IMG/VR virus record: IMGVR_UViG_2671181011_000016
DNA: 53,208 nt
From: a virus
Lineage: Duplodnaviria; Heunggongvirae; Uroviricota; Caudoviricetes
Strand: one strand, 5' to 3'
Positions 2,437-16,658 of this stretch are shown piece after piece. The translations under genes were made by a program, and so were the position numbers. Position 1 is the stretch's first letter. Each line of letters begins with the position of its first letter. The notes beneath the pieces are model-generated. The model was not told where the DNA came from, did no database searches, and saw only the letters and a list, made by a program, of their open reading frames with translations.

Positions 2437-2685
2437 ATGAAAAACGTGTTCAAAGTGGTTTTGTTCGCTGCGGCTGTAGCTCTTACTGGCTGTGCTGTTG
2501 ACAAAGAGGCTGCATTGCATAATCTGCCGAATAGCGGAGTAATTCCACAAGATGTCGTCTATGATGGCAGCGGTCATCTTGTCTATGACACTGAAAAACT
2601 GCCGTATACTGGGCAATGGTGTCATGAACTCGATCACAACATGCGCCGCATCGGTAGCCCGTCGAATTGTGTAGCTAACTACTAA
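2437..2685 (+). CDS. small lipoprotein (candidate Cor/Llp-type superinfection-exclusion protein)
   Basis: 82 aa; signal peptide with lipobox LTGC; two Cys in the mature part; opposite strand to flanking tail genes; function inferred from context only. Confidence 0.7.
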   Translation: MKNVFKVVLFAAAVALTGCAVDKEAALHNLPNSGVIPQDVVYDGSGHLVYDTEKLPYTGQWCHELDHNMRRIGSPSNCVANY

Positions 2686-9407: not shown

Positions 9408-9460
9408 TTTATCACCTTGTCATTTTGTGATCTCAATCACGCTAAATCATGCCAAAACGG

Positions 9461-9489
9461 TTGATCGCGTTTTTTACAATATGTATATT
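9461..9489 (+). promoter_or_regulatory. sigma70-like promoter of moron cassette A
   Basis: -35 TTGATC, 17-bp spacer, -10 TATATT; about 17 nt upstream of the first + strand gene; an inverted motif variant ATCACAAAATG lies at 9421-9432. Confidence 0.5.
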
Positions 9490-9505
9490 GTACTCAAAAG
9501 GAAGC

Positions 9506-9691
9506 ATGGTTAACAAAATGGCGCGGAGGTGTGAAATGGATGATAAGGTGTGGAGGTTGGCGGTGTTCCTTGCGGATGGCAGGAAAATGACTGTGGCCCT
9601 GTATAAAGATGAAGGCGAGGCACTTACCGACGCGCTCTTACTCGCTGAAGACGAACGCGTTTTGGGGTACAGGATCGAACCTGTCAAATGA
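9506..9691 (+). CDS. hypothetical protein (moron A1)
   Basis: 61 aa; RBS AAAGGAAG before ATG; start chosen among three in-frame ATGs; no recognisable domain. Confidence 0.5.
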   Translation: MVNKMARRCEMDDKVWRLAVFLADGRKMTVALYKDEGEALTDALLLAEDERVLGYRIEPVK

Positions 9692-9705
9692 GAGGTTAAC
9701 GAAAA

Positions 9706-10056
9706 ATGCAAAAATACTCGTTAGAAGTGTGGACCGATAAATGTGAATGGGAGCGCATGGGCCTGTTTGATACATATGTCGAAGCTCGTGATGAAGGTCG
9801 CGAATTGCTACGCTGTTGGTCTAACGCTCGTGATTTTGATATTACTCCGGTCCAAGTACCTGACAAGGTGGAAGAGATGAACCCGAAAGATATTAACTTT
9901 AACGTCAATGTTGAATTTGCAGGCTCTATGGATCAGGCTTGCCCTGGTGAAATCCACGCAAAAGGCTTCCCGGCTGACGATCCTGAGGCAAAACGCGAAT
10001 ACGAAAAAGCGGCGAAAGACTTCTGCATTGATAACCTGGGCGCGTTCGATAAATAA
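9706..10056 (+). CDS. hypothetical acidic protein (moron A2)
   Basis: 116 aa; RBS GAGAGG; rich in Asp/Glu; no recognisable domain. Confidence 0.6.
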   Translation: MQKYSLEVWTDKCEWERMGLFDTYVEARDEGRELLRCWSNARDFDITPVQVPDKVEEMNPKDINFNVNVEFAGSMDQACPGEIHAKGFPADDPEAKREYEKAAKDFCIDNLGAFDK

Positions 10057-10065
10057 GGCGGCAAC

Positions 10066-10314
10066 ATGGGGCGGCGCAATCACGGCGATTATGTGTACAC
10101 GTTGAAACAGGCCGCCCGCCTCGTCGGTTATCATGAGCACGAATTTATTGATTTGCTGATTGAGCGCGGGATACTGTACCAGGTATGTTTAACGCTGTAC
10201 CCGAAAGCAAAATACCTACAGGAAAAGTTATTCATCATCATGACGGATGAAAACCAGGTTAATCATTCATTCGTCACTGATAATGGCGTTAATTATCTGC
10301 GTGATAACTTATAG
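10066..10314 (+). CDS. hypothetical small protein with possible HTH (moron A3)
   Basis: 82 aa; RBS AAGGCGG; segment LKQAARLVGYHEHEFIDLLIERGIL looks helix-turn-helix-like. Confidence 0.5.
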   Translation: MGRRNHGDYVYTLKQAARLVGYHEHEFIDLLIERGILYQVCLTLYPKAKYLQEKLFIIMTDENQVNHSFVTDNGVNYLRDNL

Positions 10315-10322
10315 GACTGTAT

Positions 10323-10526
10323 ATGTTAAAGTACGACGGTCAAAAAATGGTTAGGTTTACGGGTTTTGCTAAAGGTAACAATAGAGAATTAACAGAGTAT
10401 TACAGTTTAAATATTGGTGACGTTTACCGCGTGGAAGAATGTCTGCATTCAATTAATTCTTTAATAATTATAAATAAAGAAAATCAAGGGGTGCTTGTTA
10501 CATTTAACGAAGTGGAGTTACCTTAA
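10323..10526 (+). CDS. hypothetical protein (moron A4)
   Basis: 67 aa; tightly packed after A3; AT-rich codons. Confidence 0.45.
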   Translation: MLKYDGQKMVRFTGFAKGNNRELTEYYSLNIGDVYRVEECLHSINSLIIINKENQGVLVTFNEVELP

Positions 10527-10616
10527 TCAATAAAGCGACGAAGTGATTGGAAATGTTTTGGTAGTGGTTGGCGCGATTGCCATCGTTTATGCCTTTCTGA
10601 GCTAATGGAGTGGATC

Positions 10617-10754
10617 ATGAAAATCGAAGTTTTAGCGCTAATCGCAATGGGCTTGATAGTATTTGGCGTGCACGCTGCGGATTGGGACTGGAGCGCAATA
10701 GCTGAGAATATGGCGCACGCTCACCCGATTGGATTAGTGCACATGAATTTTTAA
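10617..10754 (+). CDS. small hydrophobic protein (moron A5)
   Basis: 45 aa; N-terminal hydrophobic stretch IEVLALIAMGLIVFGVHA (signal/TM-like); RBS GGAGTGG. Confidence 0.45.
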   Translation: MKIEVLALIAMGLIVFGVHAADWDWSAIAENMAHAHPIGLVHMNF

Positions 10755-10795
10755 CACAAACCCCGCTTCGGCGGGGTGTTATAGGTAGGTGAGAT

Positions 10796-10972
10796 ATGAA
10801 AGAGGGTGTGACTTATCAGCATGTGTATACATTTGAAATTTACCGCATATGTGATGGTTATGTTGAAGAGTATAAAATCTTCCCCCGTGGATACTGGAAG
10901 AGAGTTAAGATTTCTGTAAGGTTATTAAAGAAAATGTTTAAAAAAGGATTAATTCAAGAAATTGATTTTTAG
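10796..10972 (+). CDS. hypothetical basic protein (moron A6)
   Basis: 58 aa; RBS AGGTGAG 6 nt upstream of ATG. Confidence 0.5.
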   Translation: MKEGVTYQHVYTFEIYRICDGYVEEYKIFPRGYWKRVKISVRLLKKMFKKGLIQEIDF

Positions 10973-10980
10973 TAAACAAT

Positions 10981-11020
10981 AAAAAAAAGGGGGGGGTACC
11001 CCCTTATTGTTTTATTTGTC
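10981..11020. terminator. rho-independent terminator ending moron cassette A
   Basis: A8 run, G-run / TAC / C-run hairpin, then TTATTGTTTTATTT. Confidence 0.65.
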
Positions 11021-11735: not shown

Positions 11736-11777
11736 TTTACAAAATGGCTTCACATAGGGCGTGACAAGATGTATATA
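11736..11777 (+). promoter_or_regulatory. sigma70-like promoter of moron cassette B with upstream TTTACAAAATGG motif
   Basis: motif 11736-11747, -35 TTCACA (11749-11754), 17-bp spacer, -10 TATATA (11772-11777). Confidence 0.6.
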
Positions 11778-11818: not shown

Positions 11819-11974
11819 ATGGAACGCTATGTGGTTGTGATGCTGAACAACGCATTCGAACAGGTGGAGGTGGCGATAGTCAAAGGCTTTGATGACGCAT
11901 TCAAATACGGTCAATTCATGATGAACGCGAAGGAAAATGAGTACCGTGATTTCTTCCTGAAAGTGGTCAACTAA
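11819..11974 (+). CDS. hypothetical protein (moron B1)
   Basis: 51 aa; RBS AAAGGGGGA; MERYVVVMLNNAFEQ... Confidence 0.55.
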   Translation: MERYVVVMLNNAFEQVEVAIVKGFDDAFKYGQFMMNAKENEYRDFFLKVVN

Positions 11975-11992: not shown

Positions 11993-12247
11993 ATGAAATT
12001 GGTAGCGATTGGTAAAAATCTGAAAGCACAGAAAAACGCACAGGACCGGATCATCAAAAAGGGCAAGGCTTTATTAAATGCTTTCCTGAGAAAAGAGGCC
12101 ACCCCCAAAAAATTACGCGATGGTTACGGTTATAAATTTGATATTAACCCCGATTGGCGGTTATTCAGCGAAGATTTAAAGGCGTGGTTAATTATCGACC
12201 ATCTGGAATATAACAGACACTGTGGGGTTAAAGGGGCGCATAAGTAA
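11993..12247 (+). CDS. hypothetical basic protein (moron B2)
   Basis: 84 aa; RBS GGGGTGGG; Lys-rich N-terminus. Confidence 0.55.
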   Translation: MKLVAIGKNLKAQKNAQDRIIKKGKALLNAFLRKEATPKKLRDGYGYKFDINPDWRLFSEDLKAWLIIDHLEYNRHCGVKGAHK

Positions 12248-12354: not shown

Positions 12355-12388
12355 TAGCCCCGGCATTGTACCGGGGTTTGGTTTATTT
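12355..12388. terminator. bidirectional rho-independent terminator (moron B / tape measure gene)
   Basis: hairpin CCCCGG-CATTGTA-CCGGGG followed by TTTGGTTTATTT; overlaps the TMP stop codon. Confidence 0.65.
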
Positions 12389-14731
12389 GCGGCGAGGTTG
12401 CAACATTCCTCCGGGTCGCTGCGATTCCCTTGCCATCATTTTCATCGCGACGCGTTCCATCGTCTGTTCAAGTCTGCGACTGTCTTCGTCGCTAAATCCG
12501 TTTGTGGTCTGTACGGTGATGTTAACAGGCATATTGATGCCGCCGCCGCTGAAGAGATCACGGCCAGGAATTACCCTACCATTCTCGCCAGGAATCATAT
12601 ACTGACGCCCATTGCTCGTCTGGAATAGCTCTGGGATTCCGTGCTCACCTACGCGATACAGGCTGCCACCATTAACAGAACCACCATTATAACGCCCGCC
12701 ACCAAAGATTGACGTTGCCAGCGACATGATCGCAGAAAGCGCCGCAGCACCAGCCGCCGCCCAGCTACCACCAGTTGACGCCGCAGTCGCCGCCGCCGCT
12801 GGGGCCGCCGCCGCTGCAATCTGGCCTTGTGCCGCTACTGCGCCAGCCGTTGTACTTGCCTGGGTAGCCTTGCTTTGCGTTTCCATCATCAATTGATCTG
12901 CTATCCAGTTAGCGGCAATTTCTGACAGTTTGTTGCCAACGGTGTTAAGTATGCTACTTCCCAGGTTGGCGAAAACCTCGCTTAATGATTGAGTGCCGTT
13001 TAGCAGTCCGGTAAGGGCATTACCCATGCCACCCTTCAGGCCGCTGACGCACGCACCAATCAGGCCGTTTGTTTCGCTTTGCGCCTGCCATTGTTCCCAT
13101 TTCAGATCTCTGATCTGTTGTTCATATTCCAATAGCGCCTGTTTCTGTTGCGCCTCTGTAGCGCCCAAGTCTATCAGCATTTGTTTGCGAACGGCCCATT
13201 CATTTTGTGCCTGCTTGATTGGGTCAATTTCTCCCTTAAGCTGGTCCATCGGGCTGACTATGTGATCCCATTTGTCGCGTAGCTCATCAACAGGGATTTG
13301 CGCCAATTCGTCCTTCAGTTCCTTGCCTATCCCTTTCTGCGCGGCCTTGTACTCAAGTAGGGTTATTTTGCCCTGGGCGAATGCAGCTTCAATGGCCTTG
13401 CCGTTCTCTAATGCGTTGCGCATAGCGGCGGCGTCCTTGTTGTACTGGTCGGACACTTTTATGCCTTCATCACCAAGCCGATCAGCTTCAGATTTCTTGT
13501 CCTTTTTGCCCTTTTTCCCTTTTTTAGGCTTACCGACTGGCTGATCGAATCCGGTGATCTTGCCATCGTCAGCCTCATCCTGTTTCTGCATTAACTCATC
13601 ATAGGCGGCGGTCGCGTTTTTAATGTCGTTTGCAAACGTCATGACTTTGCCGACGGTGGGGCCAAATTTTTTCTCGTTGTTGCTGTTTAGCTCTTCCTTG
13701 CGTTTATCGACGATCTCCTTCATCCACTTGTAACCATCCATTAGCGCTTTGATTGGCGTTACCATTTTGATGATTTCTTCCGCCACCTCACCAGCCTTAA
13801 CAGCAACGTCGTCAAACATGTCGATGAACTCGTTACCAGCGGTTTTAAGTGTGTTGAAACAGGTTGCGGCGAATTTTGCGCCTTTACCCAATCCCTCAAC
13901 GCCACTAGTGATTAAGTCTATTGCTGTTACAACGCCGTCAGATATGCCGAAAAGATCATCAAGCTGTTCGACAAGTCCCATAACCTCAACTTTAAGCTCG
14001 TTGAAGGCCATGCCGGATGTGCGCGGCAACTGTGCGAACTTCTCGTTTGTTTCCTGCGTAGCGGCCTGGATCGCGTTAAGCATCCTTTCAGCCGTGATCT
14101 TACCGTCCAGCATTTCAGCGCGGAACTGACCCATAGACAACCCCATTTGGCGGGCCATTTCCTGTATGATTGTTGGTGTGTTGTCACGTATTGAGTTAAA
14201 TTCCTCAGCCTGCAACACGCCAGCATCAATAGCCTGGCGGAACTGAAGCATGGAGTTTGATAGTTGTTCCGCAGACACGCCGCCCAGGTTGCCGAGTTTT
14301 TGCAGCGTGCTAACCAGGTTGAGTACCTGGCCTTCTGTAGCGGATGTGTTTTTTAGCGATATAGCAAGACCTTGCCACAGGGCACCAGTATCCTTAAGGC
14401 TTTGCCCTGTTTCTTTTGATATATCTTTCAGTCTGTTGAAAACACGCTCCGTGGCCTCCGCTTCACCTGTAAGCAGTTTGATTTTTACGCGAAGCATTTT
14501 CGCTTGCTCCGCCATGTCAATAAACTGGCGTACAGCCTCCGCAGCAAGTAGCAAATGGATAACCCTGGATAGCGCTTTGATTGAAGTCTTAAGCGTGTTC
14601 ACCTGGCGGTCAGCGCGTTTTGCGCCACGCTCGATGCTGTCAAAAGCCTGGTCTGCCTGTCGTTGAGCAACGAGAAGTTGACCAGTTTTTGCATCAACTT
14701 CGTAGTAAATTGTACCTAAACTAGTTGCCAT
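12383..14731 (-). CDS. tail tape measure protein
   Basis: 782 aa, largely alpha-helical and Ala/Gln/Lys-rich with a Gly-rich C-terminal part; sits at the lambda H position upstream of M. Confidence 0.85.
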   Translation of the reverse strand: MATSLGTIYYEVDAKTGQLLVAQRQADQAFDSIERGAKRADRQVNTLKTSIKALSRVIHLLLAAEAVRQFIDMAEQAKMLRVKIKLLTGEAEATERVFNRLKDISKETGQSLKDTGALWQGLAISLKNTSATEGQVLNLVSTLQKLGNLGGVSAEQLSNSMLQFRQAIDAGVLQAEEFNSIRDNTPTIIQEMARQMGLSMGQFRAEMLDGKITAERMLNAIQAATQETNEKFAQLPRTSGMAFNELKVEVMGLVEQLDDLFGISDGVVTAIDLITSGVEGLGKGAKFAATCFNTLKTAGNEFIDMFDDVAVKAGEVAEEIIKMVTPIKALMDGYKWMKEIVDKRKEELNSNNEKKFGPTVGKVMTFANDIKNATAAYDELMQKQDEADDGKITGFDQPVGKPKKGKKGKKDKKSEADRLGDEGIKVSDQYNKDAAAMRNALENGKAIEAAFAQGKITLLEYKAAQKGIGKELKDELAQIPVDELRDKWDHIVSPMDQLKGEIDPIKQAQNEWAVRKQMLIDLGATEAQQKQALLEYEQQIRDLKWEQWQAQSETNGLIGACVSGLKGGMGNALTGLLNGTQSLSEVFANLGSSILNTVGNKLSEIAANWIADQLMMETQSKATQASTTAGAVAAQGQIAAAAAPAAAATAASTGGSWAAAGAAALSAIMSLATSIFGGGRYNGGSVNGGSLYRVGEHGIPELFQTSNGRQYMIPGENGRVIPGRDLFSGGGINMPVNITVQTTNGFSDEDSRRLEQTMERVAMKMMARESQRPGGMLQPRRK

Positions 14732-14768
14732 GATTTAACCTCATGAAAGTGTGATCTACGTCTCTATT

Positions 14769-14811
14769 TTATACAAAATGGCTTCACTTCAACGAGTACA
14801 TTTTGTATAAA
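14769..14811 (+). promoter_or_regulatory. sigma70-like promoter of moron cassette C with upstream TTATACAAAATGG motif
   Basis: motif 14769-14781, -35 TTCACT, 17-bp spacer, -10 TATAAA (14806-14811); inverted motif copy CATTTTGTATAA overlaps the -10. Confidence 0.6.
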
Positions 14812-14887
14812 GAAGATAAAGGAAAGGGATAGAACGAAGGGACTTAAAAGGCCGGATTAACCGGAGGAAGCAAAAGAGGATAAGAAA

Positions 14888-14977
14888 ATGAAAAACGTAA
14901 ACTACCGCCCCAACGAACATGAGCGTTATGCCGACTTTATCGAAGAAATGCTGAAAGCACTTAAAAACAAAAACTAA
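14888..14977 (+). CDS. micro-ORF (29 aa) leading moron cassette C
   Basis: MKNVNYRPNEHERYADFIEEMLKALKNKN; RBS AAGAGGA. Confidence 0.4.
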   Translation: MKNVNYRPNEHERYADFIEEMLKALKNKN

Positions 14978-14989
14978 GCGGGGTGAGTT

Positions 14990-15406
14990 ATGAAACGGTT
15001 AATTAGAGCGGCAATGATGGCGGTAATGGTTGGTTTGGCATTCAACGCAAATGCAAACGATGTAATAAATATAAACTGCGATGAAGTAGCAAATAACGTT
15101 GCCGAATACCATAAAATTTTCAAGAAGGAACCCGCAGCCATCAAGGTTTTTTATAAAGCAATTGACAAGCATTTCGAAGGTAAAGCAGTTTATGCAAGAT
15201 GGTTTAATTATGGGCTTGTGAAGGAGGCTGCTGTAGGTGTCGTATTCGAAGGTAACAATGAAATAAGAAACAGAATAGCCAACGAGTGCAACGCTGATAA
15301 AGCCGCATTTGCTGAAAGAATATTTAACGAAGGCGGCGCGGGTGTAAAAAATCATGCTATCGTTGATTTAGGTAACGGCAGAATTGAAATTGTAAGGATT
15401 AGATAA
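14990..15406 (+). CDS. Sec-exported small protein (moron C2)
   Basis: 138 aa; signal peptide MKRLIRAAMMAVMVGLAFNANA with AxA cleavage motif; two Cys in the mature part; RBS GGGGTGAG. Confidence 0.65.
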   Translation: MKRLIRAAMMAVMVGLAFNANANDVININCDEVANNVAEYHKIFKKEPAAIKVFYKAIDKHFEGKAVYARWFNYGLVKEAAVGVVFEGNNEIRNRIANECNADKAAFAERIFNEGGAGVKNHAIVDLGNGRIEIVRIR

Positions 15407-15440
15407 TGAGCACTATCAAAAAGCATCATCGACATATAAC

Positions 15441-15465
15441 GCCCGGTTCTACCGGGCTTTTTCTT
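15441..15465 (+). terminator. rho-independent terminator after moron cassette C
   Basis: hairpin GCCCGG-TTCTA-CCGGGC followed by TTTTTCT; overlaps the 3' end of the convergent minus-strand gene. Confidence 0.65.
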
Positions 15466-16126
15466 GCTCGCGTTTTTTCATCAATTCCAGCACCCTTTTA
15501 GCGGCCTCCATTTGCTCATCATAATCACGTTTATTTATCTGAACGTTTGGCTTACGTTTCTCGTTTCTTTCGTCTGGTGGCGTTTTAGCGCGTACAGCGG
15601 CCCTATATCCGGTCATTGTCATGCCCCACGCTTCAGACTCAGACAATCCCAGGTGAGCAACAGCAGAATAAACATACTCAAGGATGTCGAATGTGGGCTT
15701 GTACTCGCCATCCTGGTTTTCGCCCGTGTCTTCTTCTGGACCGTCACCAATTAAACCGTGGAACATGCAGTGTTGCGCCAGTGTGATAACGTCGCTGGTG
15801 GGCATTAATCCAGGCTTTAGCCTCAACTTACCCGAAGGAGTAAAGCTACATTCGCCCAATAACGGGCCTATTTCGCATTCTGAGCAACATTTCAGTATAT
15901 GGATGGACGTTTGCACCAGCTCACCATAACAACGCGCCAGAATTCGATTGCGGAGGTCTGTATCCATTGGCATACGCCGTGGGTATCTGCCACCGTGAAC
16001 CGTTGCGAAATATTCGACCAGTTCCCTGTCACTGCCGATCTTAGCCATTGCAGCAAAGCATGGATTGAACTCGTAACGTCTTCCATCAACCACAACCGCA
16101 AATTGTCCTGTTCGAACATGGATCAT
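15449..16126 (-). CDS. putative tail assembly chaperone (lambda G/GT position)
   Basis: 225 aa from the ATG with RBS AGGGTGA (track ORF extends to 16156); lies between major tail and tape measure genes; acidic middle, basic C-terminus; assignment positional. Confidence 0.45.
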   Translation of the reverse strand: MIHVRTGQFAVVVDGRRYEFNPCFAAMAKIGSDRELVEYFATVHGGRYPRRMPMDTDLRNRILARCYGELVQTSIHILKCCSECEIGPLLGECSFTPSGKLRLKPGLMPTSDVITLAQHCMFHGLIGDGPEEDTGENQDGEYKPTFDILEYVYSAVAHLGLSESEAWGMTMTGYRAAVRAKTPPDERNEKRKPNVQINKRDYDEQMEAAKRVLELMKKREQEKAR

Positions 16127-16181
16127 AGCTGTCACCCTAAAAAATAAAGGGGCCAAATGGCCCCGATGTTAATATTTACTG

Positions 16182-16658
16182 TTACAGTGACGGAACGTCA
16201 CCTACCGTGACCTTGCCAGCGCTTTCGCACTCAATGGACCAGGTGGACACATCGTCGTGCGGATCTTCTTCTTTAAAGGAGGTGCAAAGGAACGGACCTT
16301 CGGTTACGTCGAGCGGGGAAACGAGTTTTAGCCAGACGTAAGGCTGCGCACCAGTTGTTTCGCCAGGGTTAATAACGTGGCGTTTAAGTGCTTTCTGGTT
16401 GTGGATCTCTTCGGTGCGGGATACGCCGTCGCCGGAGAAAGAAACGGACTTGTAAGTTACCATTGATTCTTTGGTATAGTCTGCTGATTTATCAGCGGTG
16501 GCGTCTGCAGTTTCCCATTCTACGGAAAGCGATTTGCCACGCATCATACCTAACGCTTTATAAGCGCTTTCTTCAGGTTTCGCATTAGGGCAAGCGATAG
16601 CGTAAAATGCGGCAACGTCGCGGCCTAAGAACGAACCTTTATCACAAGTCTGAGACAT
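16182..16658 (-). CDS. major tail (tube) protein
   Basis: 158 aa; position immediately upstream of the chaperone/TMP genes; beta-rich composition. Confidence 0.55.
   Translation of the reverse strand: MSQTCDKGSFLGRDVAAFYAIACPNAKPEESAYKALGMMRGKSLSVEWETADATADKSADYTKESMVTYKSVSFSGDGVSRTEEIHNQKALKRHVINPGETTGAQPYVWLKLVSPLDVTEGPFLCTSFKEEDPHDDVSTWSIECESAGKVTVGDVPSL

Follow-up and report, generated by a model that had tools for sequence, protein, structure and literature searches.

We report the analysis of a small accessory transcription unit carried on the + strand of a 53,208-nucleotide (nt) viral sequence, IMG/VR record IMGVR_UViG_2671181011_000016 (Caudoviricetes), which is referred to throughout, at its full length, as the window. 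The unit consists of a conserved upstream region, an open reading frame (ORF) of 29 amino acids (aa), a gene for a 138-aa protein and an intrinsic terminator, and it is enclosed by the genes of the tape measure protein and of a DUF6246 protein, both on the - strand. The region is ~91% identical to Escherichia phages mEp021 and mEp010 and the source phage is a temperate coliphage of the mEpimmI type, a group of Nus-dependent, non-lambdoid phages (PMC11893012). The gene itself is already known, in that its counterparts mEp021_63 and mEp010_97 stand in public records, both annotated 'hypothetical protein', and the unit is a textbook moron in a textbook position. What appears to be new, from sequence comparison, is that the site is an always-occupied, combinatorial slot for envelope-directed cargo in which the signal peptide seems to act as the left exchange joint; to this we add a conserved and overlooked 29-aa gene and a confidently modelled, putatively periplasmic domain without detectable relatives. 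The features of the locus are as follows.

12383-14731, - strand: tape measure protein gene, left flank (PF20155, 6.5e-49; phrog_1538)
14747-14768: CRP-like site aagTGTGAtctacgTCTCTatt, with TGTGA-N6-TCTCT at 14750-14765
14763-14780 and 14799-14816: inverted repeat, core of a conserved element of ~70 nt; 18-nt arms TCTATTTTATACAAAATG and CATTTTGTATAAAGAAGA, 18-nt spacer
14773-14781, + strand: shared 9-mer ACAAAATGG, extended form TATACAAAATGG, directly upstream of the putative -35
14783-14788 (-35) and 14806-14811 (-10), + strand: candidate sigma-70 promoter TTCACT-17-TATAAA, conserved, inferred start ~14818
14852-14865, + strand: hairpin CCGGATTAACCGGA of the 5' untranslated region (5'-UTR), in a purine-rich leader
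14888-14977, + strand: 29-aa ORF (module S), ATG start, GAGGA 7 nt upstream, peptide MKNVNYRPNEHERYADFIEEMLKALKNKN
14990-15406, + strand: 138-aa ORF (the module A gene), ATG start, GGGGTGAG upstream, beginning 12 nt past the S stop
14990-15055, + strand: signal-peptide codons of the 138-aa gene, residues 1-22, predicted cleavage ANA|ND
15056-15406, + strand: mature domain of module A (116 aa) and stop codon, with invariant C30 and C100
15441-15465, + strand: intrinsic terminator, a hairpin followed by TTTTTCTT, which is also the right-hand junction of the slot
15449-16156, - strand: DUF6246 / phrog_791 gene, right flank
16182-16658: tail tube gene, the next after the DUF6246 gene

Anatomy of the unit

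An earlier note on this DNA, made from the sequence alone, had placed an opposite-strand moron between the tape measure gene and a tail chaperone gene, ended by a terminator that overlaps the convergent gene, and the ORF list and the matches of the flanking genes bear this anatomy out. The right-hand gene does lie at the position of the siphovirus tail-assembly chaperone; the chaperone role of the DUF6246 protein, which that note had taken as given, is suggested by gene order alone. The terminator is a perfectly paired stem-loop, GCCCGGTTCTACCGGGC (15441-15457), with a 7-bp stem GCCCGGT/ACCGGGC and a 3-nt loop TCT, and together with its T-run it covers the stop codon and last codons of the DUF6246 gene. 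Within the unit the GC content is 38-41%, lower than the 47-51% of the flanks, and both skews, GC and AT, switch sign there, as is expected because its genes sit on the opposite strand.

Morons, in the sense of Juhala and Hendrix, are extra, non-essential insertions of variable content and odd composition which bring a promoter and a terminator of their own and are expressed from the prophage (PMC3594210). The low GC content, the terminator, the variable cargo found among relatives and a position shared with gene 15 of phage HK97 all support the term that the earlier note had chosen. Judged by these features of its sequence, the unit is a moron, that is, an accessory transcription unit set backwards in the tail operon of an mEpimmI-type coliphage.

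An always-occupied cargo slot

The upstream 20-mer 14765-14784 was used as an anchor to fetch 35 viral contigs, to which GenBank phages and E. coli prophages were added, and 44 loci were classified by their content from the anchor to the DUF6246 stop codon. All 44 are occupied, and between the conserved tape measure and DUF6246 genes the cargo takes 11 architectures, built from the following modules.

S: 27-29-aa peptide
A: 137/138-aa Sec protein
B: 116-119-aa Sec protein with two Cys, its mature part unrelated to A
C1 and C2: membrane proteins of 35 aa and 100 aa
D: 219-aa VasI/TagO-like type VI-associated lipoprotein (PF11319, 2.2e-16; PGAP name TagO)
E: 124-aa lipoprotein, weakly and sub-threshold BamE/SmpA-like
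F: 106-aa protein without export signal
Other cargo: a 245-aa lipoprotein and two minor first ORFs of 60 aa and 74 aa (x60 and x74 below)

The most frequent architecture is that of the window, S-A (11 loci), followed by S-C1-C2 (8), D-E (8), S-B-C1-C2 (3), D-F (3), S-B (2) and S-D-F (2), while S-D-E, S-A-E, x74-B and x60-lipoprotein occur once each. A signal peptide, a lipobox or a transmembrane segment is present in A, B, C1/C2, D, E and the 245-aa protein, so that, as read from these signals, the major cargo types are envelope-directed, F and the two minor first ORFs excepted. Module A is found in this slot only, always after S, and never on the chromosome at large or beside an effector gene. 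Its homologues in mEp021, mEp010 and E. coli prophages are direct orthologues of 138 aa, with ~88-92% identity, in the same slot.

The junctions between fixed and exchanged parts are sharp. A homologous signal peptide (MKRLAK...) is common to A, B and D, and when the window (14960-15110, carrying A) is set against E. coli strain 127 (L007 1724-1874, carrying a 116-aa B) the signal-peptide codons are near-identical and the DNA homology breaks abruptly at the predicted signal-peptidase cleavage site. A breakpoint at this site suggests in-frame exchange of the mature domains. At the protein level hhalign aligns residues 1-43 of A and B and nothing beyond; the two were considered as remote homologues and rejected as such, the similarity ending a few residues past the signal peptide. 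On the other side, the terminator stem GCCCGG/CCGGGC and its T-run are kept with every cargo type, while the loop, of 5 nt with this stem, varies. From these junctions we derive a fixed frame of promoter, usually S, signal peptide and terminator, within which mature domains or whole genes are swapped. We are in little doubt that the ORFs are real coding genes and that they occupy an accessory cargo slot.

Where B is the only cargo type, as in mEp515 (L005) and E. coli strain 190 (L008), the tape measure gene is much longer (3156 nt, as against 2349 nt) and DUF6246 has diverged further (~73% identity). A partial link between cargo type and the lineage of the tail module is thus possible.

The 138-aa protein

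The coding status of module A was assessed by the ratio of non-synonymous to synonymous polymorphism (pN/pS) across the collected loci, where pS is ~0.47. The ratio is 0.20 for the whole ORF, 0.27 for the signal peptide and 0.19 for the mature part. A word-index protein search returned 17 clusters; every one comes from E. coli or its phages, at 70-92% identity to the query, and C30 and C100 are unchanged in 16 of the 16 aligned homologues in this range.

The protein begins with MKRLIRAAMMAVMVGLAFNANA|NDV, in which K2, R3 and R6 place three basic residues within residues 1-7, ahead of an uncharged hydrophobic core of 12 residues (A7-F18; mean Kyte-Doolittle value 2.29). With Ala at -3 and -1, the rules place cleavage at A-N-A|N, after residue 22. 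There is no lipobox ([LVI][ASTVI][GAS]C, residues 1-30) and no RR motif, nor does the protein have any further hydrophobic segment beyond the cleavable signal peptide. Across the family the cleavage region AFNANA is fixed and the hydrophobic core drifts; two members have extra NA repeats and keep the A-x-A site. By such rule-based criteria for the n-, h- and c-regions, the Sec-type signal peptide and the two cysteines proposed at the outset are present, and export of the protein by Sec is highly probable.

For the mature domain AlphaFold2 gave a model with a predicted local distance difference test score (pLDDT) of 85.1 and a predicted template modelling score (pTM) of 0.76. The fold is predicted to open with a short strand, to continue through five to six helices and to close with a beta-hairpin at the C-terminus, the strands forming a small three-stranded sheet. 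Searches with module A of Pfam (E <= 1), PHROGs and NCBIfam gave nothing meaningful; PADLOC-DB (E <= 0.1) holds no family for A, S or the alternative cargo B, C1, C2, D and E; the PDB sequence profile search gave a single match, at E = 0.74, to an unrelated glycopeptidase; and Foldseek found nothing for the model in BFVD or PDB at E <= 0.001. An exhaustive hidden Markov model search of 1.84 billion representatives recovered the protein's own cluster and weak multi-repeat matches to eukaryotic EF-hand proteins (P0018, P0019), very long proteins in which 8-15 repeats align to query residues 39-75. The 12-residue loop of an EF-hand has D/N/S at positions 1, 3 and 5, Gly at 6 and Glu or Asp at 12. 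The corresponding loop of A, D61-K-H-F-E-G-K-A-V-Y-A-R72, has His at position 3, and across the family position 12 is Arg/Thr/Lys. An EF-hand domain was rejected because the loop has no ligands at these two positions and there is no Pfam EF-hand match; the score is a sum of weak repeats and no sign of shared function.

Two published products of this phage group were also considered and set aside as identities for A. The haemolysis-inducing protein Ipe of mEp021 is the 72-83-aa product of ORF-4, and the Lpp exclusion lipoproteins are gp81 and gp116, A having no lipobox.

The 29-aa ORF

The small upstream ORF is present as the earlier note had described it; its description as a leader, in the sense of a throw-away one, does not hold, since its pN/pS is 0.11 and it is kept before four cargo types (A, B, C and D). 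An in-frame 3-nt indel is tolerated among relatives. Module S is found only in mEpimmI phages. The peptide has no hydrophobic segment, so that it is not a leader of the secretion-monitor type. Purifying selection and the four cargo types together argue that S is a conserved small protein, or else a regulatory peptide whose action is sequence-specific.

Codons 5-8 of S (CUACCGCCCC) might pair in the RNA with the Shine-Dalgarno sequence of the next gene, giving duplexes of ~-13 kcal/mol in most variants, with shifts of register, and the duplex is seen also in the Magus type with its 68-nt spacer. Such duplexes are expected in any case, because a G-rich ribosome-binding site pairs with Arg-Pro codons.

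The ORF, of 28/29 aa, is unannotated in mEp021 (L001 3288-3374). In mEp010 (L002 3217-3318 and 3289-3375) the sole call over the S stretch, mEp010_98, is on the opposite strand, and mEp515_84 is the only annotated match. A gene under purifying selection is thus absent or mis-called in most deposited genomes, which is a gap in annotation. At three loci (L016, L035 and L044) the purine-rich leader carries an insertion of ~93 nt before the 29-aa ORF, ~90 nt past the promoter element, which creates a spurious Lys/Arg-rich ORF of 30-32 aa.

The upstream region and its shared motifs

The ~70 nt from 14750 to 14816 are nearly invariant in 31 unique sequences, adjacent synonymous sites differing at ~0.47; the 20 nt of the anchor (14765-14784) are invariant by construction, and the second arm of the inverted repeat lies outside it. 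The orientation of the unit, opposite to that of the tail genes, requires a promoter of its own. The promoter with a shared motif that had been claimed here is confirmed as to the motif, the 9-mer ACAAAATGG having 13 copies in the window against 0.92 expected by shuffling; the promoter, however, is not called by a consensus scan, which rejects TTCACT-17-TATAAA because the -10 lacks the highly conserved final T.

The copies of the 9-mer start at 2299, 9513, 11739, 14773, 18462, 22363, 30896, 31057, 36863, 44566, 45321, 45409 and 49211. They are often extended to (A/G)GT(A/T)TACAAAATGG, a few merely containing a start codon, and several are intergenic and lie just upstream of -35-like hexamers, including beside the repressor gene. 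The motif abuts such a hexamer at three places, namely 14773, 11739 (TTCACA-17-TATATA) and 44566 (TTGACT-17-TATATT), the last being a canonical promoter just downstream of the repressor gene; at 11739 the form ACAAAATGGCTTCAC again stands upstream of a + strand unit. ACAAAATGG may therefore be a phage-wide promoter-proximal element or the binding site of a regulator. For the 15-mer CATTTTGTATAAAGA the enrichment is not significant (6 matches at <=3 mismatches, 2.6 expected), and the pattern GTGATCTNNNNTCNC, which has the wrong spacing, gave no useful match.

The CRP-like site contains TGTGAT, invariant in the 31 unique relatives, and in most of these it reads AAATGTGATCT, a perfect CRP left half. 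Its centre lies ~60.5 nt upstream of the putative start at 14818, which is a class I position; its assignment to CRP is a reading of the consensus. CRP-like palindromes are not enriched overall in the window. Of 23 sites with <=2 mismatches, 8 lie no more than 60 nt from a copy of ACAAAATGG, where uniform placement predicts 0.67, a liberal null since both motifs favour intergenic DNA. CRP-like 16-mers of the form TGTGA-N6-TCACA occur at 9426, 11706, 14750, 30911, 36903, 40497 (perfect, TGTGATCGCAATCACA) and 45361. From this co-occurrence, the 9-mer and the CRP-like site appear to be a recurring pair at the regulatory regions of the phage, which host CRP or a phage protein might bind.

The leader hairpin has a single other copy in the window, at 2396-2409, in the 5'-UTR of an Lpp-type lipoprotein gene, and the leader as a whole is less structured than its shuffles (z = +1.08). 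An Rfam scan of 14600-15600 gave nothing credible. The shared motif and hairpin suggest common control of the accessory units, possibly through CRP, a phage regulator or an UP-element effect.

Comparison with known systems

Gene 15 of HK97, the archetypal moron, lies between the tail chaperone and tape measure genes and is expressed from the prophage, where its product blocks genome injection and leaves the outer-membrane receptor untouched; gp15 is a small inner-membrane protein related to YebO (PMC3594210). The unit occupies the same junction and is likewise an autonomous accessory unit with an envelope-protein product. It differs in lying on the opposite strand, in its additional conserved 29-aa ORF and in the exchange of its cargo among relatives, and A is a predicted soluble periplasmic protein with a cleavable signal peptide and no retained membrane helix. 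In sequence A is not related to YebO/gp15, Pfam giving no match at E <= 1.

T4 Spackle is a periplasmic protein that inhibits the gp5 tail lysozyme of incoming phage and is an early lytic product of a virulent myovirus; from its 97-aa precursor, cut after residue 22, comes a bundle of helices with a disulfide between Cys29 and Cys81 (PMC7677548). Module A resembles it in the short precursor, the 22-residue signal peptide (predicted in A), the compact helical domain and the placing of the two Cys, the first close to where helix 1 starts and the second close to the C-terminal helices (C30 and C100 in A). The mature part of A is larger (116 aa, as against 75 aa) and has a three-stranded sheet. 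No PDB chain matched A in sequence at E < 0.7, nor did Foldseek find a PDB match, although the structure of Spackle is solved; the tape measure protein has no lysozyme domain by Pfam, the other tail proteins being unscanned. By analogy, HK97 gene 15 is the closest counterpart in position and T4 Spackle the closest in architecture.

Within the mEpimmI group, the lipoproteins Lpp021 and Lpp010 exclude phages when expressed from plasmids; they are of type A in mEp021 and type C in mEp010 and exclude different phage sets (PMC11893012). Like these, and like Cor of phi80 and N15 and Llp of T5, the 138-aa gene is a prophage-borne, opposite-strand or autonomous gene for a small envelope protein in a structural gene cluster; unlike them, A has no lipobox and no sequence similarity to them, and PHROGs gives it no lipoprotein family. 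The 138-aa gene is undiscussed in the mEpimmI paper, and no mass-spectrometry data for gp62-64 were found in its supplements (PMC11893012). Genes 56, 57, 58 and 60 of mEp021 are labelled 'virion structural protein', a label that gene 63 does not have.

Proposed function and alternative explanations

The best explanation overall, which we hold tentatively, is a moron unit that gives envelope-level protection to the lysogen. The ~70-nt element, with its inverted repeat, TATACAAAATGG and CRP-like half-site, would drive + strand transcription from ~14818 independently of the late operon; the transcript would carry a purine-rich, weakly structured leader, then S and, 12 nt later, A, and would end inside the 3' end of the DUF6246 gene. 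Module A would leave the cytoplasm by the Sec route and lose its signal peptide to signal peptidase I after ANA22, as sequence rules predict, to become a soluble, helical, periplasmic domain of 116 aa, in which C30 and C100 are probably joined by a disulfide. It would then act in the lysogen's periplasm to protect the envelope, superinfection exclusion at a step after receptor binding being the likeliest form of this. We consider it rather likely that lysogens express the unit from a promoter of its own. Periplasmic exclusion or protection is our best guess for A because its genomic position is that of HK97 gene 15; exclusion as such, drawn from the two analogies, we place first but rate as doubtful because neither HK97 gp15 nor Spackle is homologous to A.

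Several points weigh against this explanation. The consensus scan calls no + strand promoter at the unit, and the shared 9-mer also adjoins an early-type promoter, so that lysogen-specific expression is not guaranteed. The same type of A is present in mEp021 and mEp010, whose Lpp types differ (A and C), and any exclusion by A is hence not specific to the target of Lpp. Both the disulfide and the cleavage of the signal peptide are rule-based predictions, and no homology or fold links A to a known exclusion, defence, immunity or virulence protein.

It is also possible, though again doubtful, that A is a factor of lysogenic conversion or host fitness other than exclusion: a periplasmic orphan immunity protein or inhibitor directed at type VI effectors, colicins or lysozymes, or a stress or colonisation factor. 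Small periplasmic proteins targeted by Sec or as lipoproteins are the usual form that immunity to periplasm-acting toxins takes, and the alternative cargo of the slot includes the VasI/TagO-like lipoprotein and the weakly BamE/SmpA-like one. The occurrence of A alongside different exclusion lipoproteins agrees with such a role, as does the reported prevalence of mEpimmI phages in the human gut (PMC11893012). Yet neither the sequence nor the fold of A matches a known family of immunity proteins or inhibitors, and its own family, confined to one phage slot in E. coli, is never chromosomal or effector-adjacent.

An unlikely elaboration sees in the slot a dedicated cassette for delivery to the periplasm, its fixed parts serving as recombination handles, with A an exclusion or immunity protein of unseen fold and S regulatory. 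Mature envelope-acting domains would be swapped in frame exactly at the signal-peptidase site; A would come into play once the receptor is bound, its target being, for example, the complex of tape measure and tail tip on its way in through the periplasm, and the 29-aa peptide would count as a new regulatory protein, a small one, that is coupled to the expression of A.

Were the unit instead mainly lytic, infection or induction would lead to the synthesis of A, which would protect the envelope of the infected cell, for instance by a block of secondary infection or by modulation of lysis, in the manner of Spackle, under promoter control shared with the other TATACAAAATGG promoters. This is distinctly unlikely. 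The 9-mer and the CRP-like palindromes do cluster at regulatory regions, among them the TTGACT-17-TATATT promoter downstream of the repressor gene and a cluster between the repressor gene and divergent genes, and Spackle is itself an early lytic product (PMC7677548); but late lytic transcription of the unit would run head-on into the tail operon, a ParE-like toxin unit, of a kind that is normally expressed continuously, stands behind the same motif, and swappable cargo of low GC content is typical of morons expressed from the prophage.

Very improbable is the reading in which the conserved element mainly regulates the tail operon, as a - strand promoter, an RNA hairpin or through antisense or convergent transcription that tunes the tape measure gene, the proteins being passengers. 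In its favour, the most conserved stretch is a non-coding inverted repeat 32-85 nt upstream of the tape measure start codon, where the - strand reads TTGAAG and then TAAAAT and the late transcript could fold into a hairpin; the terminator hairpin, too, is flagged on the - strand, in the window and in the mEp010 record. The hairpin energy of the repeat in - strand RNA is, however, unremarkable (z = -1.16), both ORFs are under purifying selection and the cargo is exchanged as coding modules, and a regulatory role of the repeat is compatible with protein function. Barely credible, finally, is a 138-aa ORF that yields no functional exported protein, being a chance ORF or an uncleaved membrane anchor, for although A lacks a family or fold match, it has 16 homologues at 70-92% identity with invariant Cys, a pN/pS of 0.20, a confident model (pLDDT 85) and canonical n-, h- and c-regions with an A-x-A site, AFNANA being invariant while the core varies.

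In human faecal E. coli the mEpimmI phages reportedly equal lambdoid phages in frequency, and those of their accessory genes tested so far are the lipoproteins and, in mEp021, Ipe (PMC11893012). The unit, in its always-occupied slot, is a candidate protective factor and extends these by a second and distinct class of cargo aimed at the envelope. With natural 'alleles' A, B, C and D behind one promoter, the slot offers a clean system for what morons of the tail operon do, and for the shared signal peptide as a recombination joint in the exchange of periplasmic domains. The results overturn no current understanding, and if A proves to be an ordinary exclusion factor it will be a routine addition to the moron catalogue.

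Other accessory units in the window

Three further + strand units were noted. The gene at 2437-2685 (+), with its upstream region at 2296-2436, encodes an 82-aa lipoprotein (lipobox LTGC; phrog_12984 'lipoprotein') and sits on the opposite strand, flanked by a tail fibre J-like gene and the - strand gene that comes next. The Lpp exclusion lipoproteins of mEpimmI phages probably have their counterpart here. The hairpin CCGGATGAACCGGA (CCGGATNAACCGGA) is common to the 5'-UTR of this gene and that of the unit, and copies of the ACAAAATG-type motif lie nearby.

Past the tape measure gene, a 51-aa ORF (11819-11974, +) is followed by a gene for an 84-aa protein with a ParE-like toxin domain (11993-12247, +; PF24732, 3.7e-11), the two being probably a toxin-antitoxin pair. 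They stand behind the same ACAAAATGGCTTCAC motif, and the 84-aa homologue is beside the tape measure gene in all six of the prophage contexts sampled.

The third cluster (9449-10972, +) comprises six to seven small ORFs inside the - strand tail region, including an 82-aa KilAC/ANT-like fragment (PF03374, 1.1e-5) and a 49-aa ORF whose N-terminus is hydrophobic, and ends at a G/C-rich bidirectional hairpin at ~10987-11005.

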